Shown piece by piece: positions 19,514 to 54,403 of a DNA stretch of 64,000 nucleotides. The stretch comes from an uncultured virus (IMG/VR IMGVR_UViG_3300030109_002631) (lineage: Duplodnaviria; Heunggongvirae; Uroviricota; Caudoviricetes). The stretch lies in the IMG/VR virus record IMGVR_UViG_3300030109_002631, positions 1 to 64,000 of that record; one strand, 5' to 3'. Numbering within the stretch: the stretch's first letter is position 1; the number at the start of each line of letters is the position of its first letter. Under the pieces are notes generated by a model that saw only the letters and a list, made by a program, of their open reading frames with translations, ran no database searches and was not told where the DNA came from. The translations under genes were made by a program, and so were the position numbers.

Positions 19514-22500
19514 TCATAATTGCACCCACACTGGCCAATAATAGTTAGTTCCACTAACAGTTGCGTAACAATATCCTTGTGGAGCGAAACCATTACCTGC
19601 CATATCGAACATTTCAACTGGTGCACCACTTATCCATGTAACTGGAGCAGCACCCATTAATGGAGAACCACCTGCACCTGCTTGACTGATAGTAGTACCT
19701 CCACCACCACCACCACCTGATGCTCCTGTAGTTCCCTGTGAACCTTGTGAACCATTTGAACCACCAGCTCCTTGAGTTCCACCAGCTCCTTGAGTTCCTG
19801 TTGTACCTTGAGTTCCTGCACCAGTAGCTCCTTGTGAACCTTGACTTCCTGTACCTCCAGAACCAGATGTACCTTGAGCTCCTTGAGAACCTGTTCCTCC
19901 GTTATTACCTCTAATACCTTGCGTACCTTGAGCACCGGGGTCACCGGGTGGTCCTTCAACACCTTGTCCACCTACTGTACCTTGAGTTCCTGCACCTGTA
20001 GTACCTTGTGTACCTGTAGTACCTGTAGTACCTTGTGGTCCTGTGCTACCTATTGGTCCTCTAACTCCTTGTATACCTTGAGCTCCTTGAGAACCTGTTG
20101 CACCCTGAGTACCTTTATCTCCTGATACAGAAAATGCTACAGTAATTCTTTCACCATTACTGAAAGGTGGATTACCTGACCCAACTAATGGAACAACCTC
20201 TATCCTGAAATAACCTGTTTGTTCAGAAATTGCTGTTACGTGGAACGAAGCATATGACGAATCACTACTATCAGCAGATTGTATAACTAAAGTACCTTTG
20301 ATTGTACTTGAAGAATCATCCCACGTACGCATCCATGCTTGTTGGTCATTACCATCTTCATCATCATCGTCAATCATTAATCTGCCAATACTACTGAAAG
20401 TAGCGTTGTCAAATCTAATGTCCCCTGCACCGGGGTCGGAATCAGTAGTAGAAGTATCGAAGGTCCATGGTGTTCCACCTCTATCACCAGAACCATCAGT
20501 TCCTTGAGTTCCTGTTGTACCTTGTGAACCTGTTCCACCACTAGAACCAGCAGTACCTTGAGAACCAGTATTACCATTATTTCCTTGAGTACCAGTTGTA
20601 CCTTGAGAACCAGTAGCTCCATCAGTTCCTTGACTACCGTTACTTCCATCAATACCTTTAATACCTTGAGTTCCCTGAGATGCACTACCACCAGATATAC
20701 CTTGAGCACCTTGTGAACCAACACCTCCTAATTCTCCTCTTATACCTTGAGTTCCTTGAGTTCCATCTGTTCCTTGTGTACCAGTTGTACCTTGTGTTCC
20801 TGTAGTTCCCTGAGTTCCTGTAGTTCCCTGAGTTCCTGTAGTACCTTGTGTACCTGTAGTTCCTTGTGTACCAGTTGCTCCTTGAGTTCCAGTTGTTCCT
20901 TGTGTACCAGTTGCTCCTTGAGAACCAGTATTACCTGTAGTACCATCAGTACCTTGAGTTCCAGTATCTCCCTTTATTCCTTGAATTCCCTGTGCGCCTG
21001 TAGTACCTTGTGCGCCCGTTGTACCTTGAGATGCACTACCACCAGATGTACCTTGTGTTCCTGTAGTTCCCTGAGTTCCTGTAGTTCCCTGAGTTCCTGT
21101 AGTTCCTTGTGTACCAGTCGTTCCTTGTGTTCCAGTAGTTCCTTGAGTTCCAGTTGTTCCCTGTGTACCAGTTGCTCCTTGGCTTCCTGTATTACCAGTA
21201 TTTCCGTCAGTTCCTTGTGTACCCGTAGTTCCTTGAGAACCAGTAGTTCCATTATTTCCTTGAGTACCTGTAGTTCCTTGTGCTCCATCTGTTCCTTGAG
21301 TACCATTTGTACCTTGTGTACCATCTGTACCTTGTGTTCCTGTGGTTCCTTGTGTTCCATCTGTTCCTTGTGTACCTGTTGTACCTTGGGTTCCAGTATC
21401 ACCAGTATCTCCTTTAATACCTTGAACTCCTTGAGCACCAGTATCACCGTCTGTTCCCTGAGTACCAGTTGCACCTTGAGCTCCCGTATTACCAGTAGTT
21501 CCTTGGGTTCCATTTGTTCCTTGTGTACCAGTAGTTCCCTGTGTACCTTTATCACCAGTTCTACTAAAGTCTAAAACTATCCTTTCACCATTACTAAATG
21601 GTGGATTGCCTGAGCCAACTAATGGAGTAACATCTATCTTAAAATAACCTGATGCCTCACTAACTCCTGTTACTTGCATCGATGCATATGATGTATCACT
21701 GCCATCAGCAGACTGTATGATTATAACACCTTCGACTGTACTAGATGAATCATCCCATGTCCTCATCCACGCTTGTTGGTCGTTACCGTCTTCGTCGGTG
21801 TCGTCTATAAATATTTTTGAAACACTACTGAATGTAGCATTGTTAAACCTAATATCCCCTGAACCGGGGTCTGAATCACTGGTAGAAGTATCGAATGTCC
21901 ATGGTGTTCCTCCACGATAACCTGTAGTTCCTTGAGCACCTTGAGCTCCTGTATTACCTTGTGAACCACCTGTAACTGTACCATCTGTACCTTGTGTTCC
22001 TGTGGTTCCCTGTGTTCCTATAGGTCCTTGAGTACCTTGAGCTCCTTGAGTTCCTGTTGTACCTTGTGTACCTGTAGTTCCCTGAGTTCCAGTAGTTCCT
22101 TGTGTACCTGTAGTTCCTTGAGTTCCATCTGTTCCTTGTGTACCAGTTGTACCTTGAGTTCCTGTTGTTCCTTGGGTTCCATCTGTTCCTTGTGTACCTG
22201 TTGTACCTTGGCTTCCAGTATCACCAGTATCTCCTTTAATACCTTGAATACCTTGTGCTCCCTGTGTACCTGTAGTTCCTTGAGTTCCAGTAGTTCCTTG
22301 TGCACCATCTGTTCCTTGAGTACCATCTGTACCTTGTGTTCCATCTGTTCCTTGAGTACCTGTAGTTCCTTGTGTACCTGTAGTTCCTTGAGTACCTGTT
22401 GTACCCTGAGTTCCATCTGTTCCTTGTGTACCAGTAGCTCCATCAGTTCCTTGTGTTCCCGTAGCTCCTTGTGTACCATCTGCACCTTGAGTTCCTACAG

Positions 22501-23833
22501 CTCCTTGAGTTCCTGTAGTTCCTTGTGTACCTATAGTTCCCTGTGTACCTTGAGTTCCTGTAGTTCCTTGGATTCCCTGTGTACCTTGTGTTCCATCGGT
22601 TCCTTGAGTACCTGTAGTTCCTTGTGTACCAGTTGTACCTTGTGTTCCATCTGTTCCTTGGGTTCCATCTGTTCCTTGTGTACCAGTAGCTCCTTGTGTT
22701 CCAGTAGTTCCTTGAGTACCTGTTGTACCCTGTGTTCCGTCTGCACCTTGAGTTCCTGTTGTACCTTGAGTACCTGTAGTTCCTTGTGTACCAGTTGTAC
22801 CTTGTGTTCCATCTGTTCCTTGAGTTCCATCTGTTCCTTGTGTACCAGTAGCTCCCTGAGTACCTGTATCACCAGTGTCTCCCTTTATACCTTGAATACC
22901 TTGACTTCCTTGTGTACCATTTGTTCCCTGAGTTCCCGTTGTTCCCTGCGTACCCGTAGCACCCTGAGAACCAGTTGTACCTTGTGTACCATTTGTACCT
23001 TGTGTTCCTGTGGTCCCTTGTGTACCATTTGTACCTTGTGTGCCTACAGCTCCTTGAGAACCTTTATCTCCAGTTTGAACAAAAGTAATTACACAATCAT
23101 CACCATTAGAAAAACTACCATTATGGTCTACATACTGAACTTGGACTTCTTCGTAGGCTGTTACTCCTGTTCCTCCACCTACATTAGCTCCAGTTATATC
23201 TAAGTTTACCCATTTAGTAGAATCATCTGTTTTAAATATTCTTAAATGACCTCGTGTGGTGCTATCACCATCATCTAAAGCATCATTCCATGCACTAACA
23301 TCAACAGAATTAATATCGAAATCTGAAATACCTACTTTAGAAATTAAAGCGTAATTAGGTACACCTCCTCCACCGGGTAATGCTAGATTAAATCCAAAAT
23401 TAGTTGACCCCGGTGAGCCAGCAGTAATGTCAAAACTGCTGTAATTAAATTCTTGGCTGTTACCACCAAAAAGACCTTGCTTTCCTTGCGTTCCTTGCGT
23501 TCCTTGAATTCCTTGAATTCCTTGCGTTCCTTGCGTTCCTGTCGTTCCTTGTGTACCAGTTGCTCCTTGAGAACCTTGAGTTCCTGTAGTTCCTTGAGAA
23601 CCTTGACTACCAGCAGTTCCTTGTGTTCCTGTAGTACCAGTAGTACCTTGTGTTCCTACAGCTCCTTGAGATGCAGTAGTACCAGCAGTACCTTGTGTAC
23701 CCTGTGCCCCTTGTGCACCCAAAGCACCTTGAGTCCCTTGACTGCCTGATTGAACTTTAGACAAGACCCAATTCTTGGTTGCGGTTCCGATTTCTCTACT
23801 TTGTAATTCTTTTCTTAATTGTCTACTGGGCAT
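19514..23833 (-). CDS. Collagen-like (Gly-Thr-Gln) virion fibre protein
   Basis: 1439 aa with hundreds of G-X-Y triplets (GTQ/GTT/GTD/GAQ) interrupted by three related globular domains; directly downstream of MCP. Confidence 0.9.
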   Translation of the reverse strand: MPSRQLRKELQSREIGTATKNWVLSKVQSGSQGTQGALGAQGAQGTQGTAGTTASQGAVGTQGTTGTTGTQGTAGSQGSQGTTGTQGSQGATGTQGTTGTQGTQGIQGIQGTQGTQGKQGLFGGNSQEFNYSSFDITAGSPGSTNFGFNLALPGGGGVPNYALISKVGISDFDINSVDVSAWNDALDDGDSTTRGHLRIFKTDDSTKWVNLDITGANVGGGTGVTAYEEVQVQYVDHNGSFSNGDDCVITFVQTGDKGSQGAVGTQGTNGTQGTTGTQGTNGTQGTTGSQGATGTQGTTGTQGTNGTQGSQGIQGIKGDTGDTGTQGATGTQGTDGTQGTDGTQGTTGTQGTTGTQGTTGTQGADGTQGTTGTQGTTGTQGATGTQGTDGTQGTDGTQGTTGTQGTTGTQGTDGTQGTQGIQGTTGTQGTQGTIGTQGTTGTQGAVGTQGADGTQGATGTQGTDGATGTQGTDGTQGTTGTQGTTGTQGTTGTQGTDGTQGTDGTQGTDGAQGTTGTQGTTGTQGAQGIQGIKGDTGDTGSQGTTGTQGTDGTQGTTGTQGTTGTQGTDGTQGTTGTQGTTGTQGTTGTQGTTGTQGAQGTQGPIGTQGTTGTQGTDGTVTGGSQGNTGAQGAQGTTGYRGGTPWTFDTSTSDSDPGSGDIRFNNATFSSVSKIFIDDTDEDGNDQQAWMRTWDDSSSTVEGVIIIQSADGSDTSYASMQVTGVSEASGYFKIDVTPLVGSGNPPFSNGERIVLDFSRTGDKGTQGTTGTQGTNGTQGTTGNTGAQGATGTQGTDGDTGAQGVQGIKGDTGDTGTQGTTGTQGTDGTQGTTGTQGTDGTQGTNGTQGTDGAQGTTGTQGNNGTTGSQGTTGTQGTDGNTGNTGSQGATGTQGTTGTQGTTGTQGTTGTQGTTGTQGTTGTQGTTGTQGTSGGSASQGTTGAQGTTGAQGIQGIKGDTGTQGTDGTTGNTGSQGATGTQGTTGTQGATGTQGTTGTQGTTGTQGTTGTQGTTGTQGTTGTQGTDGTQGTQGIRGELGGVGSQGAQGISGGSASQGTQGIKGIDGSNGSQGTDGATGSQGTTGTQGNNGNTGSQGTAGSSGGTGSQGTTGTQGTDGSGDRGGTPWTFDTSTTDSDPGAGDIRFDNATFSSIGRLMIDDDDEDGNDQQAWMRTWDDSSSTIKGTLVIQSADSSDSSYASFHVTAISEQTGYFRIEVVPLVGSGNPPFSNGERITVAFSVSGDKGTQGATGSQGAQGIQGVRGPIGSTGPQGTTGTTGTQGTTGAGTQGTVGGQGVEGPPGDPGAQGTQGIRGNNGGTGSQGAQGTSGSGGTGSQGSQGATGAGTQGTTGTQGAGGTQGAGGSNGSQGSQGTTGASGGGGGGGTTISQAGAGGSPLMGAAPVTWISGAPVEMFDMAGNGFAPQGYCYATVSGTNYYWPVWVQL
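19730..23740. repeat. Degenerate 9/18-bp tandem repeats encoding collagen triplets
   Basis: Repeated units such as CCTTGAGTT/CCTGTAGTT/CCTTGTGTA. Confidence 0.9.
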
Positions 23834-34134: not shown

Positions 34135-35121
34135 CTAATCGAACTCAGGAAACTGCTCTTGGTTCTCAAGCTCTATTAAGTCTTTAGATTTATTATCGAT
34201 ATCTGCGTAGTTCTCTTTCTTTCTGGTATATTTAGGTTTCCACTTAGGTATTTCTGCATCACATGGCCCCCCATTAGATTTATGGAACGAGCACCATTTA
34301 CATAAGTTCTGTGGAACTTGTTCATATCTATCTACGTGTTCTTCTCTTTCCTTAATACAGTCATGTACAAACTTAATTAAGTCTTTAGCTTCATCGAGCA
34401 CTTGCTGATTGACCTTAACAAAGAACGTGTCATCAAAGCGTAAATAGTTGACACCTACAAAGTTAGGCATCTCTCCCATCTCTAATGTGTATAAAAACGC
34501 ATATATGATTAGTTGGCGATAGTATTCTTCAGGAAGGTATGCTCCATAGCGCTTACTAGTCTTATAGTCCAGTAATGTAGTACCACCATCGAAATCATTA
34601 CACACAACATCGACAACTCCTACAATAGCATATTCATGAGATTTAACCCACTTCTCAGCATACTTAGGTGCTACTGCATTCCATGCTTGTTGCTTGTTCC
34701 TAAATATCTTCCATTCAACCATCTCTGTAAGTTTTTTATTTACACTACCTACAAAGTTCTGTAAGAGTTGTTCTGTCTCAATATACATAGACTCCATCTC
34801 TTCATCAGTGTGTACTTCCCATAACCATTTATGTTTAGCTATCTTTTCTTCCCATCCTGTTTCGAATTGTTCTTGTACCCACTCGAATGCATTTCCTTTT
34901 TCCCATTGTGCTAAAGTACGATATTTTTGTTTGAATAAATCTTCTAATACTTTGTGAACTAAAGTTCCACGGAATAAATGAATTGTTTTCTTTTCTGGAA
35001 GTTTTGCAATATATTTATAATAGAACTCTCTGGGACATTTCTTGTATGTGTTTATTTTTGAAGGGCTCAACCTCATATGGCTTGGTTGCCATTTATCTGT
35101 ATCTGCTTTACCTACTATCAT
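34135..35121 (-). CDS. PD-(D/E)XK RecB/Cas4-like exonuclease
   Basis: LSPSKINTYKKCPR, GTLVHKVLE, GVVD, LLDYKTS, QLIIYA and C-terminal CKWC...C. Confidence 0.85.
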   Translation of the reverse strand: MIVGKADTDKWQPSHMRLSPSKINTYKKCPREFYYKYIAKLPEKKTIHLFRGTLVHKVLEDLFKQKYRTLAQWEKGNAFEWVQEQFETGWEEKIAKHKWLWEVHTDEEMESMYIETEQLLQNFVGSVNKKLTEMVEWKIFRNKQQAWNAVAPKYAEKWVKSHEYAIVGVVDVVCNDFDGGTTLLDYKTSKRYGAYLPEEYYRQLIIYAFLYTLEMGEMPNFVGVNYLRFDDTFFVKVNQQVLDEAKDLIKFVHDCIKEREEHVDRYEQVPQNLCKWCSFHKSNGGPCDAEIPKWKPKYTRKKENYADIDNKSKDLIELENQEQFPEFD

Positions 35122-35870
35122 CTTTCCTCTGTGTTAAAAAAGTATAACTGAAATAATCTATCATTCTCTATGGAATCTCCAAAGTATTGAGAAGCAGCAT
35201 GTATATGTTTAGCTTCAAATAATATCATACGATTATATTTGTTTCCTATTACATCTACTATTTCAAATGGGGTAGGGTCATAAAAATTACCCTTAAACAC
35301 ATCCCAATCAGATTTTCTTTCTACTCTATCTTGTCCTGTCTTCTTATGCCTATAAAGTGTTGTTCCACACTCTACTGGAGCATCAGGAGTTAGATAAATC
35401 ATAGCTGCCCATTTCTGGTCATCAGCATGTATTACGAAAGGGTCTTCTGCCATACAGTGTTGAAACACACCATTAGTTTGATAATCCCATCCACCTAGTT
35501 CATTACCCTTTGCCATCTTCTTTCCTAATATACTTTCAAATTTTTCTTTAACTCCTTTGAAATGTTTAGGGGTTAAAGTACGGTGCCCTACGGCTCCGTG
35601 ATATCCTCTTTCTACAAATTCTCTTGTCATAGCGTAATCTCTTACAGCATCTGGATTACTATAAAAATTATCTATCACTACTATGGAAGGTTGACTATCT
35701 GTCGGAGTAATATCTGCTACTCTTTCTTCCATGAGTTCTTCAACTGATAAGTTTTTAAGTCTTTCATATTCTTTTGGGTCATCCATACCTAAAGCTCTCA
35801 TTTCTCCATAGTCTTCAGCAGATATGTATCCATCTGGTTGTATTTGTGGTATGACAATTTCCTCTTTCAT
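35118..35870 (-). CDS. 2OG-Fe(II) oxygenase (DUF6445-like)
   Basis: VVIDNFYSNPD, IHAD (HxD), AAMIYLTP...GTTLY, NRMILF...IHAA, RLFQLYF. Confidence 0.8.
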   Translation of the reverse strand: MKEEIVIPQIQPDGYISAEDYGEMRALGMDDPKEYERLKNLSVEELMEERVADITPTDSQPSIVVIDNFYSNPDAVRDYAMTREFVERGYHGAVGHRTLTPKHFKGVKEKFESILGKKMAKGNELGGWDYQTNGVFQHCMAEDPFVIHADDQKWAAMIYLTPDAPVECGTTLYRHKKTGQDRVERKSDWDVFKGNFYDPTPFEIVDVIGNKYNRMILFEAKHIHAASQYFGDSIENDRLFQLYFFNTEER

Positions 35871-36535
35871 TTATCTTTCTCCGCTAACATCTTTTTAATG
35901 ATTTCATCTTTATCAGTAATAGACTTAGATGTAGATGGTTTAAGTCCAGCTAAAGCGTCAGCGTCTCTTCCTTCAAGGTTATCAATGTTCCATTGACAGT
36001 GTCCTATATAGGCAGCATCTATTCCTTTCATTGCTTTCACTTCTTTAAACTTTTCTATACATTCTTTAAATCTTCCAATCCACCATAGCGCTACTGCTTC
36101 TTGGAATGGAAGCGCAAAGAATCCGGGATATTCACAACAGCGGTCATCTAAGTTGTAAAGCAGTGGTGTTCTATCTCCGTTAAGTTTTTGAGCAATCTTT
36201 GCTATAGCATATGATTCATGCCAATCCCCTGTTCTTTCTAACGAGCAAGATAGGATATGGTAAGCCTCTGGTCTGTTAGGTAGAACAGATATTGCTAAAT
36301 TAGCATTGGTCTGAACGTGTGATTCTCTTTCACCTGCTTTTGTAAAACATATAGCCTTTCGGCATAAACATTCGTAAGCTAATAGTTCATTGTCTGTTAA
36401 CTCTGCACATTTAAGATAATATCCCATGGCAGAGGCGTATTGCCCTATGAGTTCATACTCCCACCCGATTTCAAAAGAATTTTCGGGAACATCTGGGGCT
36501 TCGATGTAGTTTTCTAGTTTTGATTGTAATGACAT
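35867..36535 (-). CDS. TPR-repeat protein (type associated with phage glycosyltransferases)
   Basis: SAMGYYLKCAE, AISVLPNRPEAY and EAVALWWIG helical repeats. Confidence 0.7.
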   Translation of the reverse strand: MSLQSKLENYIEAPDVPENSFEIGWEYELIGQYASAMGYYLKCAELTDNELLAYECLCRKAICFTKAGERESHVQTNANLAISVLPNRPEAYHILSCSLERTGDWHESYAIAKIAQKLNGDRTPLLYNLDDRCCEYPGFFALPFQEAVALWWIGRFKECIEKFKEVKAMKGIDAAYIGHCQWNIDNLEGRDADALAGLKPSTSKSITDKDEIIKKMLAEKDK

Positions 36536-36537
36536 AA

Positions 36538-38166
36538 TTATTTCTCTCTAATTGCTAAATAAATCTCAGGATGTTCAGTTGTCTTAACTTCATACCCTAT
36601 TTCATCTAAATAATCGAATAAATCGTTTTGGAGTTTAATGTTAGTTTTGTGGTGAGGTGGCCAGCTCTCGAATAGTATAGGTGGATAGTTATTATCTGTT
36701 AAAGTTTGAGAAGCACCCTTAAGGACTTCTAGTTCATACCCTTCAACATCTATTTTGATTAAACCAATGTCTTTTAAATTAAAGTGGTCTAATCTTCTAA
36801 TCTCTTTCATGTATTGCGCTTGATTATTACCTACCCAAGCGTCACCATCATATTCTAAGCGGAAACCATTTGTTCCACCATCTGTACTTCTTTCAAAGAA
36901 TGTTTTGAGTCCATCTTCGTTACCTAATGCTATATTATGGATATCTACCTTTCTTGATAGACCTTTAAGTAAAACATTGGCACTGAGATAGTTAAATGTT
37001 TCTACTGTAGGTTCAAAGGCATAAGTTCTTCTAAAATGAGGAGCTAAGGTCCAAGTATATGTTCCTACGTGTGCTCCTACGTCTACAAACACTTTATCAG
37101 CGTCTGCAAACTTATTTAGCGTCCATTCTATCATTTCATGTTCTGGAGCTTTGTAATCCTTTAAATATTGGACCATAGCTTCAGGGACCATGTAATTATT
37201 ATTATCCATCCTATATATCTTCTTTTCATCTTCTACTAAACATACTGCATCTGAATCTACATAGAATGCTTCAGGTATATTTAAATCTTCAGATATAATG
37301 TTAGCGTATTTAGGGTCTACACCATTTTCACACCTCTTACACATATCGTATGTCGTATTAGGTGGTGGTAATATATCATCATACTCTTCTTCGTATAGAT
37401 TACCTAAGATTTCTTCTAAATTGTAATCCATACAACATAATGATACCTCACCATTAGGGAGTAGTATATTATGATACAAGTCTTCTACACAACCACATGT
37501 TTTATCTCCTTCGTGGTATACTGACTTAAATTCATTCCATACTTCCTTTACTTCTGGTTTTAGTTGTGCTTCACCCAATAAGTTACCTGCTCTGTGCCAC
37601 ATTTCATATTTATTCACTTTTTCATCAGGGTACAGGTGTTCTACTTCTGGGTGTACAGTTCCCATTGCCATAGTTTGAAAATTATTGATATTAGCGTTCT
37701 TCAATGCTTCTACTACCTTAATGTATGTACTCGTAACTGGATGTTTGGCTCTATATTCTTTGTCTGGTAAGTGTAAGGTGAAACCACCATTAGGTCCACC
37801 ACAGTATGGTATATCCTTAAGACGTTCTACATCTTTAAGCTTCATACCTACAGCTGTTGTAAATACAGATACTCTATGCCCTTGTTCGTGTGCATATAGT
37901 AACATATCTGTAGCTTTGCTGTTTAACCATGGTTCTGTAAACCCAGAGAGTGTTATACGTACTTCTTTAGGTAATTTATCTATTACTTTCTTAAAGTCTT
38001 CTAACTGCATTGTTCTTGCTCTCTCTGTAGTAAACTTCTCAGCGTCCCATACTTTTTGTAAGACTCGCTGAGGACAAAAGACACAATCTACTACACATCC
38101 CTTTTTAGGGATAGAGGTTGTTATCTCTAAGGTAGGCCACTCTGTAACTCTCCAATATTCATTCAT
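36538..38166 (-). CDS. Radical SAM/SPASM fused to FkbM-family methyltransferase
   Basis: CxxxCxxC (CVVDCVFC), SGFTEP, SPASM-like NGEVSLCCMD...LGNL...CKRC; C-terminal VDVGAHVG, AFEP and IKIDVEGYE. Confidence 0.85.
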   Translation of the reverse strand: MNEYWRVTEWPTLEITTSIPKKGCVVDCVFCPQRVLQKVWDAEKFTTERARTMQLEDFKKVIDKLPKEVRITLSGFTEPWLNSKATDMLLYAHEQGHRVSVFTTAVGMKLKDVERLKDIPYCGGPNGGFTLHLPDKEYRAKHPVTSTYIKVVEALKNANINNFQTMAMGTVHPEVEHLYPDEKVNKYEMWHRAGNLLGEAQLKPEVKEVWNEFKSVYHEGDKTCGCVEDLYHNILLPNGEVSLCCMDYNLEEILGNLYEEEYDDILPPPNTTYDMCKRCENGVDPKYANIISEDLNIPEAFYVDSDAVCLVEDEKKIYRMDNNNYMVPEAMVQYLKDYKAPEHEMIEWTLNKFADADKVFVDVGAHVGTYTWTLAPHFRRTYAFEPTVETFNYLSANVLLKGLSRKVDIHNIALGNEDGLKTFFERSTDGGTNGFRLEYDGDAWVGNNQAQYMKEIRRLDHFNLKDIGLIKIDVEGYELEVLKGASQTLTDNNYPPILFESWPPHHKTNIKLQNDLFDYLDEIGYEVKTTEHPEIYLAIREK

Positions 38167-39320
38167 TCTTTAGAAACGATTTGAGCGTACTGCTCTTTAC
38201 TAGTCCTCCAGTTTATTATATCTTCTAAGTAAGCACTTGGTAAATGAACCATGTACGCTGAATTATCTTGGAATCCAAATGTACAATAGAAGTCATTAGC
38301 CATTTCATCTGGATGCTTAGCTAATCCACAGCAGAATTCTATTCTACCATCCATAAACTTAAAAGCATCTGATGTGCCTACTACATTCCAGTCTTCGTCC
38401 CATACAAAGAATCTATGATAGTAATGTGCATCTCTATCATCTTTATCATTATGCCAGTAATCACATTCGTGGGTTACAGCCATATAATGTTTCTTACCTT
38501 CTCTTGTATAAGGTACTACTTGTGAGCTACCTCTAGGGGAAAGTTGTAGGGGTATCTGCGTAGAATCATCACCTTGGAATACTACTTCACATGGTGTTGT
38601 ATATTTTCTTGGATTATTCTTGTGCTTCTTATTGATATTTACTTTTACCACTTGTATAGGGTTTGACCATTTCACGTAGTGAAACGGCATATCTAATATA
38701 GGCATCCAATTCTTCTCACAGTATGCATCCTCTTCACCTTCTGGTGGGTCTATGACATACCTACCTAATTCTTTGACTCTATTGTCTTTCTTAGAAATCT
38801 CAATCTCGGAAAGTACCATCCTTCCTTTTCCATTGGGCGCGTAGCGACGAACGCCTGTAACGTACATCTTCTTGTCCCATTGGACGATACGAGCGTCCTC
38901 TAGTCCTACGAAATCCCATTCTGGTTCCTTAGGGAACTTCGATGTGTCTATCTTACGTGGTCTGGTAAGTTTCATATTCCTTAGATTAAAATCACAGATA
39001 TAGTTCTGTGTTCTAAGGTATGGGTCATTATCAGGTCTTACGTAGTTTAGGGGTCCCCATGGAGTCTGGTATTTCTGTTCTCCTTCGCAATGGTGTAGGT
39101 AGTATGATACGTTTCTAACGTTAACTAAATACTTGGTTGTATCTGGTATGTGCCAAATGGACGGGTTGCATAATCCAAGTCCACCTGTCTCTTCCCAGCC
39201 TACTATGAGGGGTTCAATTCTCCCTCCCTTCGATAATAGTTGTTCTACTAAAGAAGTCTCCATTACGTCTTTCATCTCCGTGCTTTCACGTTTTATTTCT
39301 TGTTGCATATTAAGCTCCAT
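38163..39320 (-). CDS. Five-bladed beta-propeller glycosidase/phosphorylase (GH130/GH43-like)
   Basis: CNPSI, GLEDARIV, EKNWMP, RGSSQ and IEFCCGL motifs. Confidence 0.75.
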   Translation of the reverse strand: MELNMQQEIKRESTEMKDVMETSLVEQLLSKGGRIEPLIVGWEETGGLGLCNPSIWHIPDTTKYLVNVRNVSYYLHHCEGEQKYQTPWGPLNYVRPDNDPYLRTQNYICDFNLRNMKLTRPRKIDTSKFPKEPEWDFVGLEDARIVQWDKKMYVTGVRRYAPNGKGRMVLSEIEISKKDNRVKELGRYVIDPPEGEEDAYCEKNWMPILDMPFHYVKWSNPIQVVKVNINKKHKNNPRKYTTPCEVVFQGDDSTQIPLQLSPRGSSQVVPYTREGKKHYMAVTHECDYWHNDKDDRDAHYYHRFFVWDEDWNVVGTSDAFKFMDGRIEFCCGLAKHPDEMANDFYCTFGFQDNSAYMVHLPSAYLEDIINWRTSKEQYAQIVSKE

Positions 39321-42473: not shown

Positions 42474-42542
42474 ATGAGCAAATACAGCACATGGTTAACC
42501 AGCTATATGGTTAGCATATCATACGCAACAAGGAAACTGTAA
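42474..42542 (+). CDS. Possible leaderless 22-aa peptide preceding a structured RNA
   Basis: MSKYSTWLTSYMVSISYATRKL* at the same cassette position (TATATTATGAGCA) as the 43111 ORF. Confidence 0.35.
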   Translation: MSKYSTWLTSYMVSISYATRKL

Positions 42543-42554
42543 ACATACATTCCG

Positions 42555-42765
42555 TGAGTTAGTCAGACAGTAAGATGTGGCCCAAGGAGTAGGCGCACCC
42601 CAACGGAAAGGGGCATGTCACCAACTGAAAGAGGTTAATAGCCAAGTTGGTATTAAGTGACTAATAACAGAGGAGGTCTGACAAGTGAAGATACTATGGG
42701 CAACTGGTCCCCATACGAAGGCTCTGCATGACCCTACTCCTCAGGCTGGATTGACCACCAGCCGA
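42555..42765 (+). ncRNA. Candidate pseudoknotted ncRNA A
   Basis: AGGAGTAGG 42585/CCTACTCCT 42733 crossed by GTCAGAC 42562/GTCTGAC 42676; also CCCC/GGGG, GTCAC/GTGAC, CCAACT/AGTTGG, TATGGG/CCCATA and GGCTGG/CCAGCC; no ORF. Confidence 0.6.
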
Positions 42766-42799
42766 CAACCTTATATAGGCATGGCCTATTGTATATTTA

Positions 42800-42966
42800 A
42801 CGGGGTAGCTCCCTGTTATCGGGTATGGCCGAACAAGTCCGCCACGGACTAAGGCACAGGGTAAGCAAACCAAGAACCAACTGGTGGAGGGATGCTTAAC
42901 TGGTAACGCGTCTACTATGTAGTGGCATAACGCGTTTGGAGGTATACATTAAATCCTCCTACCCAC
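42800..42966 (+). ncRNA. Candidate ncRNA B with its own promoter
   Basis: TATA at 42771; ends pair GGGTAG 42803/CTACCC 42959; inner stems CCCTGT/ACAGGG, AGTCCG/CGGACT, AAGCA/TGCTT, AACGCGT/ACGCGTT and GGAGG/CCTCC. Confidence 0.65.
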
Positions 42967-43110
42967 CTTATATACCCCCCTTTCCACGCTTGTGGATTTC
43001 AAAAAGTGCGAGCGGGATTTTTTCCTTTATATACCCCAATATAGGATTTTAGGGTTCTCGACGATAGGGGCCACCGAAAGTGGTATAAGTTAGCTCCCCT
43101 ATACTATATT

Positions 43111-44669: not shown

Positions 44670-45031
44670 TACAGTTAAGCATATGCATAACACGTGACCA
44701 GAGTAGTAAGACAAGAATAGACCATACGCCAGTAACGACACACCACAACCAAATTAGCTGAACCATCCCTCAACGGTTATCTTAAGAGAGAGTTGGCCAT
44801 TAACTGATTCGACATGATTGCATCACTAATCCCTGTTGTAGAGTTTCGTCGTGAAGCTATGACGCAATTCTCTTCATCTCACTATGACTCCATCTCCTGA
44901 CCGTTCGCGGTTTGACTTGGAGCTGGTCACACCCTAATCGGTAACCTCTGTTCGTTAACAACACGTTACTGTGTGGCGACCGCTCCCAATGTGACTTGTT
45001 TCAAAGTATATACCACATTGGTGAAGTCGCA
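44670..45031 (+). ncRNA. Candidate large pseudoknotted ncRNA C (~360 nt) with its own promoter
   Basis: TATA at 44642; GTGACCAG 44694/CTGGTCAC 44923 crossed by CAGTAACG 44730/CGTTACTG 44964 and CAGTTAA 44672/TTAACTG 44800; 3' GCGAC/GTCGC enclosing CCAATGTG/CACATTGG; no ORF. Confidence 0.62.
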
Positions 45032-45863: not shown

Positions 45864-46457
45864 ATTGACGCCCCTTGACTTCCGTTATCGAATGCAAAAA
45901 CATCGAGGAAGGAATGCTTTACCACCGGTGGTATATAAGTCAGGGGCTCATCTTATTTTTCCACAGGAGAGGACGGCCTCAGTTCAGGCTCTATTAGTCT
46001 CTCATTTTATTTTTTTTTCTCAGCTTAGCTCGATAGCGCTTAGTGAGAATGTTCTCAGTTGGTGCACCGCTCTGTCGGGGTGAGAAACGGCGTAGTCGGA
46101 CCGCCGTAGTGAGAAACTTCTCAGTTGAGCATCAGGTGAGAGTGCTCAATGGAGCTCATCGTCGGTATATTGAGCTGAGTAATTTGCTTTTTAGAGCTTT
46201 TTACTAAAAAATTTTCTCTTTTCGTGTGAACAGAGCAAAATACCATAAACACAGTTCACCTCTATATTAATATGGCTCTATAAAGATAAGCTCTACTATG
46301 CACTTTACACTAAGCTCTTAGTTCAATATTGCATAATAGAGCTATATCTTAATATAGTAAATATAGTATACACTACCCTCAGTATAAAAAGCTTTGGTCT
46401 CAGCTTATATACAACACCCACCGAAACGCTTAAATAGCGCTTCTACTCTGTGATAGC

Positions 46458-47014: not shown

Positions 47015-48199
47015 ATGAGTAGAGGATACGCAACAGATAGACCATCCCCGTCTCAGTCCGCAACATGGTATGATGAGTGGACAGAAAGAGAAGGAGGAGA
47101 TGGTAAGATATGGCACGTGAAGAGAGATTCACGTGGAACTAAGAGATGGACACGTGGAGATGCTCCAGCGTGGACACATGAACTGAGAGTGGAAGACGAT
47201 AAGCTTATAAAGGACCCTATAGATGGGGATACAGATATGGAAGACAAAACCGAACACAGAGGACTCGATGACCTATTCGATGTAGGAGCTGAGAGCCCCA
47301 TGCCAGAAGAGGAACCAACCCCCGAAGAAGTGGTTGTAGAAAAAGACACAGTTATGACTAAGCTGAAAGGTTCAGTCAATGTGCCAGAAGAATTCAAATT
47401 CGCAGACAATATGACTTTCTATACTATGTTGAGAAACATATTTAGAGGTAAGAACATTCTCATCACAGGACCATCAGGTTGTGGTAAGAGTAGTCTCGGT
47501 AAGATATTAGCTGACATTACAGGTAAAGAGTTTTATTCTTTTAACTTTGGTGATACTATGAATCCCTCAGCTAAACTATTAGGTGATACTAAGTATAACA
47601 AAGAAGATGGAACATGGTTCAAGCCGTCTCGGTTCGTTAAGGCTATACAAGCTGACTCGTTTATTATGTTAGATGAGGTAACACGTGACCGAACAGGTGA
47701 CTTAGCCAATATCTTAATGCCTGTCTTAGATGGACAGAAGTATTTAGCTCTCGATGAGAGTGAGGATGCTGACTCAGTTGAGGTTGACGCACGAGCTTTC
47801 TTCTTCGCAACTGCGAATATAGGTAGAGAGTATCTCGGTGCATCACATGATTTAGATAGAGCATGGAAAGATAGATTCACTGGTGGTATATATGAATTAG
47901 ATTATCTACCTATGAATAAAGAAAAAGAATTGATTATGATTAGAAGCCCTCAGTTAGATGAGTGGAACGCAGAGAAGATTGTAGACTTTGCAAAGAGAGT
48001 GCGTGACTTATACAAGTCCGACGAACTAACAACAGCCGTCTCAACTCGTATGTGTTTAGCGGTAGCTGAACTCGTAGTAGATGGGATGCCTTTGATAGAT
48101 GCATTGAAACATACCTGTCTACCATTCTACCCTATTCAGGGTGGTGACGATACTGAGAGAGTAAGAATAGTTCAAGTCATTCAATCTATGGGTGACTGA
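47015..48199 (+). CDS. MoxR/CbbQ-type AAA+ ATPase
   Basis: GPSGCGKS, MLDEVTR, FFATANIG.EY.G, LDRAWKDRF, VSTRM. Confidence 0.9.
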   Translation: MSRGYATDRPSPSQSATWYDEWTEREGGDGKIWHVKRDSRGTKRWTRGDAPAWTHELRVEDDKLIKDPIDGDTDMEDKTEHRGLDDLFDVGAESPMPEEEPTPEEVVVEKDTVMTKLKGSVNVPEEFKFADNMTFYTMLRNIFRGKNILITGPSGCGKSSLGKILADITGKEFYSFNFGDTMNPSAKLLGDTKYNKEDGTWFKPSRFVKAIQADSFIMLDEVTRDRTGDLANILMPVLDGQKYLALDESEDADSVEVDARAFFFATANIGREYLGASHDLDRAWKDRFTGGIYELDYLPMNKEKELIMIRSPQLDEWNAEKIVDFAKRVRDLYKSDELTTAVSTRMCLAVAELVVDGMPLIDALKHTCLPFYPIQGGDDTERVRIVQVIQSMGD

Positions 48200-48631
48200 T
48201 TGGGTTATCTTAGTTCGATAAAGACAATGGAGTATAAAATGGTAAGACGAAAAAAGAAAGTATTAAAGAGAAAGCATACATATTGGCATCAGTTAGCTAA
48301 AATAATGTTAGGCTTTGGTTTCAAACCAACTATGGTAGGACATATATTAAAAGATGTATTCCCAGAGACTGAGGTAAATGGCAGACATGTCGGTGCATAC
48401 AAACGTAGACTGATACAGGATGATGAACTGATTGTGCCAGAGAAAGCAACTATGTCACGCAACGAAGCTTCTCAACTCGCACCAGAACTGGTCTCAACAG
48501 AAGACATGTTCATATACAAGTGCACAGTTGGGTCAGCTAAGAAAAGTTTAGAATGCTTTCAGTTCAAGTTTAAAGCAGAAGATGTTAGTGCAGTGGAGGA
48601 AGTAGAAGAATGGATTACGGCGATTCAGTAG
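48200..48631 (+). CDS. Hypothetical protein (possible HTH)
   Basis: ORF between the AAA and vWA genes. Confidence 0.6.
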   Translation: MGYLSSIKTMEYKMVRRKKKVLKRKHTYWHQLAKIMLGFGFKPTMVGHILKDVFPETEVNGRHVGAYKRRLIQDDELIVPEKATMSRNEASQLAPELVSTEDMFIYKCTVGSAKKSLECFQFKFKAEDVSAVEEVEEWITAIQ

Positions 48632-50739
48632 ACGAGTGGGCTGAGGAAAGCGACGAAGACTACTGCTATGCATGTGATGACTGGGCTGAGGATGACGGTC
48701 ATGGTAACTGTAATGAGTGTGGTGTCAGTTTCAAAACTGTAGACCCATTTATCTCACCATCAGTTGCAAAGACCTACAGTTCACCAGCACCAGCCGTCTC
48801 ATCTCACGGTGATGTATGGAACAGAGGTTCCGCTTACACATGGGGCAGAGGTGCTTCATGGTGGGGTGGTTCAGGTTCAATGACCTCATCATGGGGTTGG
48901 GGTTCCTCAGTATCACACAGTGACAATACAGCTCGTATGTTAAAACATAAGAGACACTTAGATTCTCTCTGTAAAGTAGTAGACCCTAACGTAAAACATG
49001 TTCTTAACTTCTCAACTGACGGCTCGAATGTATCTAACATGAGTAAAGGAACTATCTATGTTGATGGTTCTTTGTTAGAGAGTAATGATGATAAGTTAGA
49101 TGTAGTAGCAGGTCTCTCAATTCACGAGAAGCTACACTTAGTTCATACTAAACCATTAGTTAAATGGGAAAGAGAGTATGCAGATGATAAGATGTTGAGT
49201 CACATTGAAGAGAGGCTACTACACAATATTGGTAACATTATTGAAGATGAGTATATAGAGTCTCAGTTGGCTAAGACACATGCAGGTTATGTAAACTACA
49301 TCCAGAAAGTGAAAGAACATTACTTTGAGAAACATGGACATAAGATTGAAGAATGTAAAGACCCGTTCGCAGATGTATTGAACACTCTCTTAGCGATGGT
49401 TAGATATCCTCAGTCCATAGATGCTACACGTAAAAGGAAACATGCAAAGCATATTCAGTTCTTCGGTAGAGCATTGAAGGATGGACTCAAAGACAGAGAA
49501 AGTTCTCTTCTTTGTATACGAGTATTGTATGAGTATATGCGTCAGTTAGCTGAACAACATGCAAAAGAATCTAAAGAGAAAGATGAAGAAAGTATGATGG
49601 AAAGAGCAACTGAAAAGTTAGATGAAATCATGGATTCATACAAAGAGAGTGGTGTTGAGAAAGAAATATCAGAAAAAGATTTAGATAGGATGCTCGACCA
49701 ATTACTCAAGGATGAAAAGAAAAGTGCAGAGAGGACAAGTAGGTATGGTGAACAGAGGGTTATCAGAGATGGTCTCGATTCACATCCCGTTGAACTCACT
49801 GACTATGATAAAGCTATGGGTAAGATTGACATGGACTTAGATAAAAAGATTAGAGACTTAGAAGACAGTGACTACTCAGAAGAAAAGTGGACTGGTGACA
49901 AAGCTCTCGGTTTAAAACAAGGAACTAAAGTCACATGGAAGAACCAACGAAGTCATACAGAAAGAGAGGCACATCAATATGATGAGGCAATTACATCTAT
50001 GAAAGCACCTATATCAGGTCTAAAGAGACGCATCTCTCTTTACGGTGACACTAAGGTTCACACTATAAGAAATCAACGTAGAGGTAGATTAGATAAAAAG
50101 ATGTTACATAAGATACCTCTCGGTAGAGATGACTTATTCAAAAACATTGTAGTTGACGAAGACAAACCATTAGATGTATGTCTCTTAGTTGACGAGTCAG
50201 GTAGTATGGGTTACGGTAAAATGAAGAAAGCGAGAGAGTGTGCTATAGCATTACGAGAAGCACTAAAAGATAATCAAGCTCTCAACCTATGGGTCTTTGG
50301 ACACACAGCTGACGGTTATGACTGGGATGATAAGATGGCAACCAATATGTCAGTATACTGGTCACCTACTTACCAACAGGATTTGAAAGCTATGGGTGCT
50401 ATGAGAGCACGTTCAGAGAACAGAGATGGTATGGCTATCTTAGCCTCAGCTGACAAAGTAAAGAGTGAATCACCATCAACATCAAGTAACAAACTTATGA
50501 TTGTTATCTCAGATGGTGAACCCTCAGCTGATAAGTATCGTGGCTTTGAAGCAGTAGGTCATGTATCAAAAGTAGTAAAGCACCTTGAAGGACAAGGATG
50601 GAATATAATTCAGATTGGTATTCGTGGTGCATCTACATCTATCATGGATAGAATGTTTACTAACTGGATTTATGTAGATGATGAAGCTCAGTTAGCTAAC
50701 AAAGTAGGAAGAATAGTAAGGAAGGTGATTAAAGTTTGA
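48610..50739 (+). CDS. vWA-domain (CobT-like) partner of the MoxR ATPase, with N-terminal Zn ribbon and HExxH motif
   Basis: CYAC...CNEC, HEKLH...NIIEDEYIE, MIDAS LLVDESGSM...VISDGEP. Confidence 0.88.
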   Translation: MDYGDSVDEWAEESDEDYCYACDDWAEDDGHGNCNECGVSFKTVDPFISPSVAKTYSSPAPAVSSHGDVWNRGSAYTWGRGASWWGGSGSMTSSWGWGSSVSHSDNTARMLKHKRHLDSLCKVVDPNVKHVLNFSTDGSNVSNMSKGTIYVDGSLLESNDDKLDVVAGLSIHEKLHLVHTKPLVKWEREYADDKMLSHIEERLLHNIGNIIEDEYIESQLAKTHAGYVNYIQKVKEHYFEKHGHKIEECKDPFADVLNTLLAMVRYPQSIDATRKRKHAKHIQFFGRALKDGLKDRESSLLCIRVLYEYMRQLAEQHAKESKEKDEESMMERATEKLDEIMDSYKESGVEKEISEKDLDRMLDQLLKDEKKSAERTSRYGEQRVIRDGLDSHPVELTDYDKAMGKIDMDLDKKIRDLEDSDYSEEKWTGDKALGLKQGTKVTWKNQRSHTEREAHQYDEAITSMKAPISGLKRRISLYGDTKVHTIRNQRRGRLDKKMLHKIPLGRDDLFKNIVVDEDKPLDVCLLVDESGSMGYGKMKKARECAIALREALKDNQALNLWVFGHTADGYDWDDKMATNMSVYWSPTYQQDLKAMGAMRARSENRDGMAILASADKVKSESPSTSSNKLMIVISDGEPSADKYRGFEAVGHVSKVVKHLEGQGWNIIQIGIRGASTSIMDRMFTNWIYVDDEAQLANKVGRIVRKVIKV

Positions 50740-50837
50740 ATTGGAAAGCCCCACCACATTTAGATGAAGCAGGTTGGTATCTACTACTGGTTTGCTTTAT
50801 GGTATTGTGGATGTGGATAATCATGTTCTTTCATTAG
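50736..50837 (+). CDS. Single-TM microprotein (33 aa)
   Basis: TTG start with AGGTGA SD; MNWKAPPHLDEAGWYLLLVCFMVLWMWIIMFFH*. Confidence 0.5.
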   Translation: MNWKAPPHLDEAGWYLLLVCFMVLWMWIIMFFH

Positions 50838-50847
50838 CAGGGTGACA

Positions 50848-50916
50848 GGGAATAAGTTGAGAACCTTTTACTTCTTAGTTTCGGTCGGTTTAGCTCATAT
50901 CTCTCGGCTTGTTCCC
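50848..50916 (+). ncRNA. Long hairpin RNA (15-bp stem)
   Basis: GGGAATAAGTTGAGA pairs with TCTCGGCTTGTTCCC using three G-U pairs, which favours the + strand. Confidence 0.5.
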
Positions 50917-50924
50917 CACTATAC

Positions 50925-51385
50925 GCAACGAAGACTTTGAATATTGAACTCGGAATAGATAAAGATAAGTGATAACAGGAAGGCCACGCTTAGCCTAATC
51001 ATAATGGCGGTAGTAGGACTCGAACACTTATCCTCAGTTAGGAAGCACCTCGCTTCGGAACCTTGAAAAACAGGAACTAAGCAGTGAGGTTCCCTATACT
51101 GAGTTGTATAACCCCTGTAATTGTATCGTGACTCTTTTGTCAGATGACTTTGGTTGGTTATACAAAGAAAGTCCACCTTGAGACCACGTTAAGCGAACCT
51201 CAGACAGAGCATAATGTTTTAAACTAATTGTTCTATAGCAGGTAATACCTTTTTGGGTCGGTATTGTGAAGAGAACCCAGTTGGTCGGGTTAGTGACTAA
51301 ATATCTCAATGGGAGTGACACGTTCACTGATTATCAGCACACGTATTCACACACCATAAACTGAGAGCCATTCTCTCTTCGTTGC
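50925..51385 (+). ncRNA. Candidate large ncRNA D (~460 nt) with group-I-like P3/P7 pseudoknot order
   Basis: Perfect 10-bp end pairing GCAACGAAGA/TCTTCGTTGC; GATAAGTG 50964/CACTTATC 51025 crossed by GTAGGACT 51013/AGTCCAC 51170; CTCAGT/ACTGAG and TTGTATAACC/GGTTATACAA stems. Confidence 0.68.
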
Positions 51386-51446
51386 ACCAAAAGCTTTATA
51401 TAGATATTTGAAATATATTGAATTATAATAACAAGGAATTGAAAAT

Positions 51447-51884
51447 ATGCAAACATTTCTACCAACAAAAAACTTTAGAACATCAGCCAAACTTTTAGAT
51501 TACCGTCGTCTCGGTAAGCAAAGAGTAGAAGGGCTTCAGCTCATCAACTCTCTCAGTCCAGACTACGATAAGAAAGGTTGGCTTAACCACCCAGCACGTT
51601 TAATGTGGGTTGGTTATGAGAATGCACTCAAACATTATACTAACTGTATGATAGAAGAGTGGGTGGCACGTGGTTATAACAACACGATGTCATTGTATGA
51701 AATAGAAAAGCCGATAGTATTCCCTCAGTGGTTAGGCTATCCAGAACTGCACAAGTCACATCGAATAAACCTATTACGTAAGGATTACGACTTTTATAAA
51801 CAGCACTTCGATGACGATGCACAAATGGACCTCGCAATCATAAACGAGTATGAATACTATTGGCCACCGGAGAAAGAAAAATGA
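51447..51884 (+). CDS. Pyrimidine-dimer DNA glycosylase / endonuclease V (DenV) family
   Basis: MQTFLP...LDYRRLGKQRVE..Q...GWLNHPA..MW.GY...SHR.NLLRKD; TATA at 51389. Confidence 0.85.
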   Translation: MQTFLPTKNFRTSAKLLDYRRLGKQRVEGLQLINSLSPDYDKKGWLNHPARLMWVGYENALKHYTNCMIEEWVARGYNNTMSLYEIEKPIVFPQWLGYPELHKSHRINLLRKDYDFYKQHFDDDAQMDLAIINEYEYYWPPEKEK

Positions 51885-53800: not shown

Positions 53801-54403
53801 ATGAAAGAGATAATGGAAAAATATAGCACCACATTTTTTGAAGCGATGGATACATGGCCCGATGAACTCAAAGAAGATATATACAAGTTATATGCTTACT
53901 TAAGAGTATGTGATGAAATGGTAGAAGGAGCTGAGTTAGCTGACTTCACACATTGGAGAGAAGTAATAGAACAATTCTATGAAGTAAGTGATAAGTATCA
54001 GTTCAAGGGTGAATGGTTAGCAGATTTTCATTTAGCTATGTATACTGATTTAGTTAAGAAAGAACATACTGTGAAGTCTATGCTTGAGTATTGTAAAGGT
54101 TCAGCTGAGTCAGTAGGTGTAATGATGGCATCTATATTAGGCTGTGACCCACGAGCTGAGAGACATGCAAGGGCTTTAGGTAGAGCATATCAAATAATAA
54201 ACTTTGTTAGAGACTATGAAGAAGATATAGCTAATGGTTACCATTATATTACTGATGATTTTAATTTATATATTAAATTATTTATGGAAGATTTGCAGAT
54301 AGGTGTAGAAGGATTACACTTCATACCTGAAGACTTACGTGGTCCTATACTACATGCTAATCAATCATACATAGAGGTGGCACGTGAAGCCAACCTACTA
54401 TAA
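53801..54403 (+). CDS. Compact phytoene/squalene synthase-like (CrtB/SQS) prenyltransferase
   Basis: YSTTF, LYAYLRVCDEMVE, YCKGSAESVG.M, ALGRAYQIINFVRDYEED. Confidence 0.8.
   Translation: MKEIMEKYSTTFFEAMDTWPDELKEDIYKLYAYLRVCDEMVEGAELADFTHWREVIEQFYEVSDKYQFKGEWLADFHLAMYTDLVKKEHTVKSMLEYCKGSAESVGVMMASILGCDPRAERHARALGRAYQIINFVRDYEEDIANGYHYITDDFNLYIKLFMEDLQIGVEGLHFIPEDLRGPILHANQSYIEVAREANLL

Follow-up and report, generated by a model that had tools for sequence, protein, structure and literature searches.

What kind of element lies between the two complete open reading frames that border positions 50838-51446 of the virus genome studied here, and what could it do for the virus? The window (the whole stretch of DNA that was analyzed, 64,000 bases out of a virus record of 66,265) derives from a marine tailed virus. 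An earlier note had proposed that an RNA starting at 50925 has the helix order of a group I ribozyme and interrupts no host gene, with a new class of large ncRNA as the fallback. The region is indeed intergenic, and every motif on which that proposal was built is found in the sequence where it had been placed. The signal of the single sequence is weak. When the intergenic region is shuffled, 27 of 300 versions contain an inverted repeat as long as the 10-bp terminal helix (50925-50934/51376-51385), four of 100 shuffles fold as stably (z = -1.95), and the minus strand reaches z = -2.83. A comparison of the region with all 4227 Rfam families at E-values up to 10 gave only three unrelated chance matches, none of them to a group I model. 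ARAGORN found nothing in the region, and a blastn search against phages returned only two chance matches.

Relatives were gathered in several ways. Searches with the flanking proteins yielded 14 and 11 viral loci, and a pattern of the 3' end yielded eight viral and 59 metagenome loci. The RNA set combines the window with 14 viral and 59 metagenome loci; after removal of 11 fragments and collapse of identical copies, it comprises 48 distinct RNAs, which measure 62-611 nt in the form extracted, up to 10 trailing bases included. Locus L079 does not differ from the window. As a locus fits the pattern only if it has the shared 3' end and a TATA box downstream, this set is skewed to one subgroup. 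A peptide alignment later brought in three members whose scaffold sequence differs, and a model of the leader described below a fourth (L138). Four further candidates from single-module scans (L034, L036, L140 and L141) were chance matches only and were dismissed. Nothing in Rfam matched within the RNAs of 11, 20, 6 and 2 related loci.

These relatives allow the group I core to be examined strand by strand. The 8-bp helix drawn as P3 (50964-71/51025-32) is present in the window but in only 2/48 RNAs of the whole set, where it is the outer helix of an exchangeable module, termed A. Similarly, the 7-bp P7 (51013-20/51170-76) with its bulged A can be drawn, but it is not a conserved or covarying crossing helix. 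Its 5' strand is exact in 17/48 RNAs and always stands behind the upstream strand that completes module A, while its 3' strand (51170-73) pairs downstream in all eight carriers, with covariation and altered base pairs over 4-6 bp; the register of the best downstream helix for this position is shifted in L011. Both P7 strands occur in order in 4/48 RNAs if one mismatch is allowed, and in L050 they are both present but mismatched. P3 and P7 together, in group I order, are limited to 2/48 RNAs with zero compensatory changes. The stretch taken for a P4-P6-like domain consists of the 5' strand of module A and an exchangeable insert. Group I introns have a conserved P3-P7 catalytic domain with the guanosine site in P7, according to the available part of PMC3984707. 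Neither P1/P10 splice sites nor a terminal G were found here, and payload-free relatives keep the scaffold. A scan of viral contigs for the group I-like helix order returned six stretches without any kin of the window among them, and the four of these that were checked have no other pieces in common. A non-splicing ribozyme derived from group I, for which the drawable helix order, the bulged A and the retention of both helices in one relative can be cited, is thus extremely improbable given the rarity of P3, the pairing of the P7 strands elsewhere, the mismatch in L050 and the absence of an Rfam match. That relative, L067, is the sole one to keep P3, and its P7 could still form through a one-sided change to G-U, so that an alternative fold with P7 is possible in the window and L067 only. 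The fallback of a new large ncRNA class fares better and is supported. Judged by sequence comparison, the ncRNA is unlike any RNA family tested and is not a group I RNA.

The ncRNA, scaffold and payload together, spans 50925..51389 on the plus strand, with an ACCA after the terminal helix. With two distant members set aside, covariation across 42 distinct end pairs establishes the terminal helix as real and reveals a rod around the payload, consisting of P1, a 4-bp P1b and P2. In the window, the 5' strand of this scaffold (50925..50953, +) comprises P1 (50925-34), P1b (50939-42), a conserved loop strand and P2 (50949-53), and the 3' strand (51361..51385, +) comprises P2 (51361-65), P1b (51370-73) and P1 (51376-85), both assigned from covariation and pairing. 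At three columns, for example, compensation is seen in 18-20 rows. The covariation analysis led us to abandon a cloverleaf of tRNA type, with a T-arm hairpin on its 3' side, in favour of the rod fold. Since ACCA follows P1 in only 24/48 RNAs (CCA is missing in the other 24/48), the scaffold is not called tRNA-like. Two relatives, L007 and L049, carry the scaffold without any payload; therefore, the payload is dispensable. This payload-free version measures about 55 nt, and the RNA would offer RNA engineering a scaffold that is ready for use.

Between the scaffold strands, the window carries a series of modules, all on the plus strand. The arm of module A (50964..51032) combines the outer helix mentioned above with a core (50982-85/51016-19), which contains the strand read as the 5' side of P7, and near-invariant loop bases; 13 bases are invariant in 12 aligned rows. 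Its core is kept while unrelated helices, the supposed P3 being one, take the place of the outer helix, and its strands stand 29-92 nt apart with unrelated content between them. Module B (50993..51008), a short hairpin whose 10-nt loop is conserved, is nested inside A in the window and located elsewhere in relatives; a loose motif matches in 29/51 RNAs, which includes false hits and is not a valid count. Modules C and D form a long arm with internal loops (51033..51103), followed by the arm of module E (51104..51165). The former shares a 15-nt piece and the latter a 24-nt piece with the distant L131, which has the other scaffold type. Module G (51170..51298) has closing helices (51170-73/51295-98), a hairpin (51244-65) and a pseudoknot (51254-58/51275-79). 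In the fold drawn here, its pairing is 100%, seven rows hold 19 compensated cells and 20 of the 29 pairs are invariant, and the pseudoknot shows one compensated pair, in two related rows. Its halves occur in one order in four RNAs and in the reverse order in nine, and across these forms the loop has on average 4.1 nt paired versus 2.8 in shuffles (24 candidates, four of them doubtful). A last arm (51299..51360) is private, occurring in no relative found, whereas the rest of the payload is mostly covered by pieces of relatives.

Mosaicism extends across the whole family, with modules swapped, nested, reordered and circularly permuted among relatives. De novo searches defined 87 blocks that are each present in at least four RNAs; in the top 45 blocks, 522 pairs co-occur, and 39 of these are seen in either order (a few may stem from repeated words). 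The 51 RNAs fall into 41 payload types (<70% mutual cover). Even where the surrounding DNA is nearly the same, the payload can differ entirely: among the 33 RNAs with both flanks, the pairs L075/L080 and L051/L068 are 99% identical in their downstream DNA and have zero payload in common. A second store of payload modules was not found elsewhere in the genome. We are highly confident of the resulting architecture, a fixed scaffold with exchangeable modules. Near-identical modules may nonetheless stem from recent exchange instead of selection, and the locus could be a recombination hotspot that gathers stable RNA folds neutrally or selfishly, with only the leader and the scaffold being functional, for instance in processing the 3' end of an mRNA. 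The occasional absence of payload, the recurrence of short words and the presence of a resolvase and a PD-(D/E)XK nuclease in the virus would suit such a hotspot, but it does not account for compensated helices and fixed cores in modules that occur across distant scaffolds, and we regard it as fairly unlikely.

The element does not start at 50925 but about 85 nt further 5', where it opens with a leader hairpin (50840..50924, +). Its outer pair h (50840/50924) and central 4-bp helix (50841-44/50917-20) are followed by two 3-nt bulges (50845-47 and 50921-23) and a 15-bp inner helix (50848-62/50902-16), from which an excised piece of 76 nt is predicted. This is a bulge-helix-bulge (BHB) motif as defined in the available parts of PMC4090602 and PMC3978253. 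A motif-free scan 5' of P1 looked for a 4-bp helix, two 3-nt bulges and an inner helix of 11-16 bp. Three of the 48 RNAs have no leader (two truncated, one not recovered), and the remaining 45 collapse to 40 distinct leaders. The BHB register is found in 39/40, as is an inner helix h' of 11-16 bp. The outer pair is Watson-Crick in 35/40 leaders, compared with 21.6 in shuffles (0/2000), keeping in mind that the sequences are related to one another and that shuffle controls throughout thus overstate significance. In 16 aligned leaders, 98.4% of the positions are paired with 43 compensated cells (0/500 shuffles); the central helix is 100% paired with compensation at two of its four pairs, and the held-out L127 and L131 bring new central-helix pairs. 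Of the 31 shapes of this kind in the window, the leader ranks first, and a search with its model yields a single strong copy there and one copy in 8/10 related records. The outer helix, which usually abuts P1, is a single covarying pair in most leaders and reaches at least two pairs in 4/40 and at least three in 2/40. The strict BHB form has flanking helices of more than two pairs (PMC3978253, in the part available), and euryarchaeal splicing endonucleases are said to be strict in the accessible text of PMC4090602. The leader does not qualify as this strict form on its outer helix and fits the relaxed HBh' form.

With respect to its sequence and predicted pairing, the leader is the shape that is cut by the archaeal tRNA splicing endonuclease. 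We lean towards the view that the host enzyme releases the ncRNA in this way. In L138, the BHB hairpin is located 3' of the ncRNA, as expected of a portable cut signal; this family member of 481 nt occupies 1604-2084 on the minus strand of its record. Another BHB hairpin with a different central helix occurs in L139 (1314-1600, minus strand), about 130 nt before an unusual tRNA gene called as tRNA-Lys(CTT), and no scaffold was seen there. Once excised, the hairpin may constitute a separate small RNA. In almost every member, its loop (50863-50901, +) has a short motif that is conserved. Conserved stretches that are single-stranded, this loop among them, would be expected of an RNA that acts as antisense or guide, with modules pairing to transcripts of the host or the virus, but matches to the own genome are not in excess (three observed versus 1.5 expected, the longest being 13 nt) and are nearly all on the same strand, making such a role very unlikely.

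Parts of the stretch are present in 17 sequencing runs, 13 of which are RNA. Four of these 13 RNA runs, from four studies, all have contigs inside the ncRNA (contigs only), noting that the RNA runs were picked because they contain the stretch and that run X1 also covers coding DNA. Contigs reveal neither strand, ends nor level, and RNA depth cannot rank the ncRNA against its neighbours. No spliced or circular joint was seen in the contigs of the four RNA runs. In X1, a contig matches the stretch from 50846 onwards and is preceded by foreign letters; this point adjoins what we take to be the cut site of the splicing endonuclease, and, coming from a single contig, it is a weak hint. Other loose contig ends in X1 run into other modules at 50948, 51038 and 51079, so that alternative arrangements coexist in one sample.

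The genomic neighbourhood offers some indications on the host. The window encodes a terminase, portal, capsid, tape measure protein and family B polymerase, next to a resolvase, HSP20, MazG and the PD-(D/E)XK nuclease (all by Pfam). Three genes on the plus strand precede the ncRNA: an AAA+ ATPase (AAA_5 and CbbQ_C by Pfam; 47015..48199) that belongs to the upstream operon, a VWA-domain protein (Pfam; 48610..50739) that is the usual 5' neighbour (11 related loci), and an open reading frame for a hydrophobic peptide of 33 aa (50736..50837) that is frequently found immediately 5'. The latter is missing in the L007/L008 types and has no ncRNA behind it in 3/7 new loci. On the 3' side, a TATA-like box (51394..51402, +), recognized by sequence and genome-wide spacing, is probably the promoter of the following gene, a pyrimidine-dimer DNA glycosylase (Pfam; 51447..51884, +). 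The window contains 70 TATA-like sites, 14 of which have an ORF start 24-34 nt downstream, six of them at 28-29 nt. In leaderless archaeal transcripts, the ORF starts at such a distance of 28-29 nt from the TATA box. Because this spacing fits the leaderless archaeal layout, we infer archaeal-type promoters and take the host to be archaeal; the virus probably infects an archaeon. The species genomes searched for a host gave zero matches, the capsid matches no named phage, and terminase and polymerase have at most 25% identity to named phages. Membership of the magroviruses is not claimed since no link to a host or a named phage was found. None of 13 neighbouring proteins matched a PADLOC model. 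The virus additionally encodes a squalene/phytoene synthase family protein (53801-54403, +), a cluster of a radical SAM-FkbM methyltransferase fusion, a TPR protein and DUF6445 (35118-39320, minus strand) and, among the virion genes, a 1439-aa protein with nine collagen-repeat stretches (19514-23833, minus strand), all according to Pfam.

How might these elements work together? The region would be transcribed along with the upstream operon, as no promoter of its own was seen. The host tRNA splicing endonuclease would then cut the BHB hairpin and free the 5' end of the ncRNA, after which the constant rod scaffold may protect the ends and display a payload of independently folding modules. While the mosaicism itself is observed, recombination between co-infecting viruses is a plausible route by which modules are gained, lost, nested and reordered. 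The fixed core bases within freely varying helices presumably mark binding surfaces, and the modules could serve as decoys that tie up RNA-binding or antiviral proteins of the host, with a set that shifts along with the hosts. We put forward this whole explanation, a viral RNA released by the endonuclease with exchangeable decoy modules, as our leading candidate while giving it somewhat less than even chances. The decoy role within it is likewise tentative and is suggested by the fast turnover of the payload beside stable genes, the fixed cores and the existence of phage precedents. Alternatively, the modules may be natural aptamers whose targets are not proteins but small molecules, either metabolites or nucleotide second messengers, which they would sponge up. 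Invariant unpaired cores in variable helices, an H-type pseudoknot and the circular permutation of module G would fit, as such features are typical of riboswitch aptamers. However, no riboswitch family matched, an RNA with one site is a costly sponge, and hairpin-loop modules such as B resemble protein sites more, so we hold an aptamer role to be improbable.

The sole Rfam match in the window is a manA RNA (42798-42969, +) with 67 bits, which exceeds the gathering score; it lies 8 kb 5' of the rod-scaffold ncRNA in a virus with archaeal-type promoters. It is preceded by another non-coding stretch with stems (42500-42790, +), of which a 54-nt piece matches two of five relatives. A further intergenic candidate for a structured RNA (44680-45000, +) has pieces conserved in 3/5 relatives and contigs in the RNA runs X1 and X5, no Rfam match and zero modules in common with the rod-scaffold ncRNA. 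A non-coding stretch at 45970-46400, with many inverted repeats and short words that recur, adjoins an N gap and is possibly an origin or a genome end; a similar stretch adjoins manA in L112. According to the part available of bioRxiv 10.64898/2026.07.01.735769, manA forms closed oligomers. One may thus ask whether the modules provide RNA-RNA contacts through which the ncRNA assembles itself into cages or scaffolds like manA, as manA-like sequence is found in this virus and in all five relatives tested. A defined assembly should nevertheless require a fixed geometry, while the ncRNA varies from 62 to 611 nt with free module order, and we see little chance of this.

Returning to the decoy reading, its widest form is an RNA-only, combinatorial counter-defence cassette in which archaeal viruses trade dozens of natural aptamer or decoy modules on a single endonuclease-released scaffold and tailor them to the defences of each host. 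This form is rather doubtful; if true, it would parallel, at the RNA level, the hotspots of anti-defence genes. Should the modules be decoys or aptamers, their partners would expose components of defence or signalling in uncultured marine microbes, and if the endonuclease processing holds, the virus would be using the signal of a splicing endonuclease as a portable tag for RNA cutting. In any case, the family is a natural plug-and-play display system with many portable modules, each of which is a small, testable RNA.

Full-text searches of the openly available literature, with a closer look at PMC11706807, PMC5434244, PMC2864571, PMC3984707 and PMC13108676, brought up no such RNA; single modules may be present in the extensive supplements that list candidate RNA motifs of viruses. 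With archaeal BHB introns and processing sites, the leader shares the covarying helix of 4 bp along with both 3-nt bulges, and the enclosed hairpin of 40-85 nt is within the intron size range given in the accessible text of PMC4090602. Unlike these introns, it lies outside tRNA, rRNA and coding sequences, beside a viral ncRNA on the 5' or, once, the 3' side, and unlike strict BHB substrates it has an outer helix of mostly 1 bp. Group I introns and the lariat-capping ribozyme resemble the ncRNA by the drawable helix order and bulged base (in the window and L067 only), yet the ncRNA does not have the conserved P3-P7 pseudoknot, fixed P4-P6, splice sites and host gene of the former. Similar to tRNA-like elements and tmRNA, a terminal helix is followed by ACCA (24/48) and a variable middle is closed by a stem, but covariation reveals no cloverleaf or T-arm, ARAGORN is silent and CCA is absent in 24/48. 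ROOL and GOLLD are large, ornate, multi-stem ncRNAs of phages, and manA (RF01745) is likewise a large multi-stem viral RNA of unassigned role. Each of these three families has one fold, whereas the rod-scaffold ncRNA has a free payload and no Rfam match; no match to any Rfam family was found within any of the RNAs. As far as described in the available parts of PMC3475682 and PMC10651486, pseudo-ToxI of phage PhiTE and the Racr anti-CRISPR RNAs, respectively, are small structured decoy RNAs encoded by viruses and altered through recombination or expansion. These mimic one known host RNA, while here dozens of unlike modules are carried on one scaffold.
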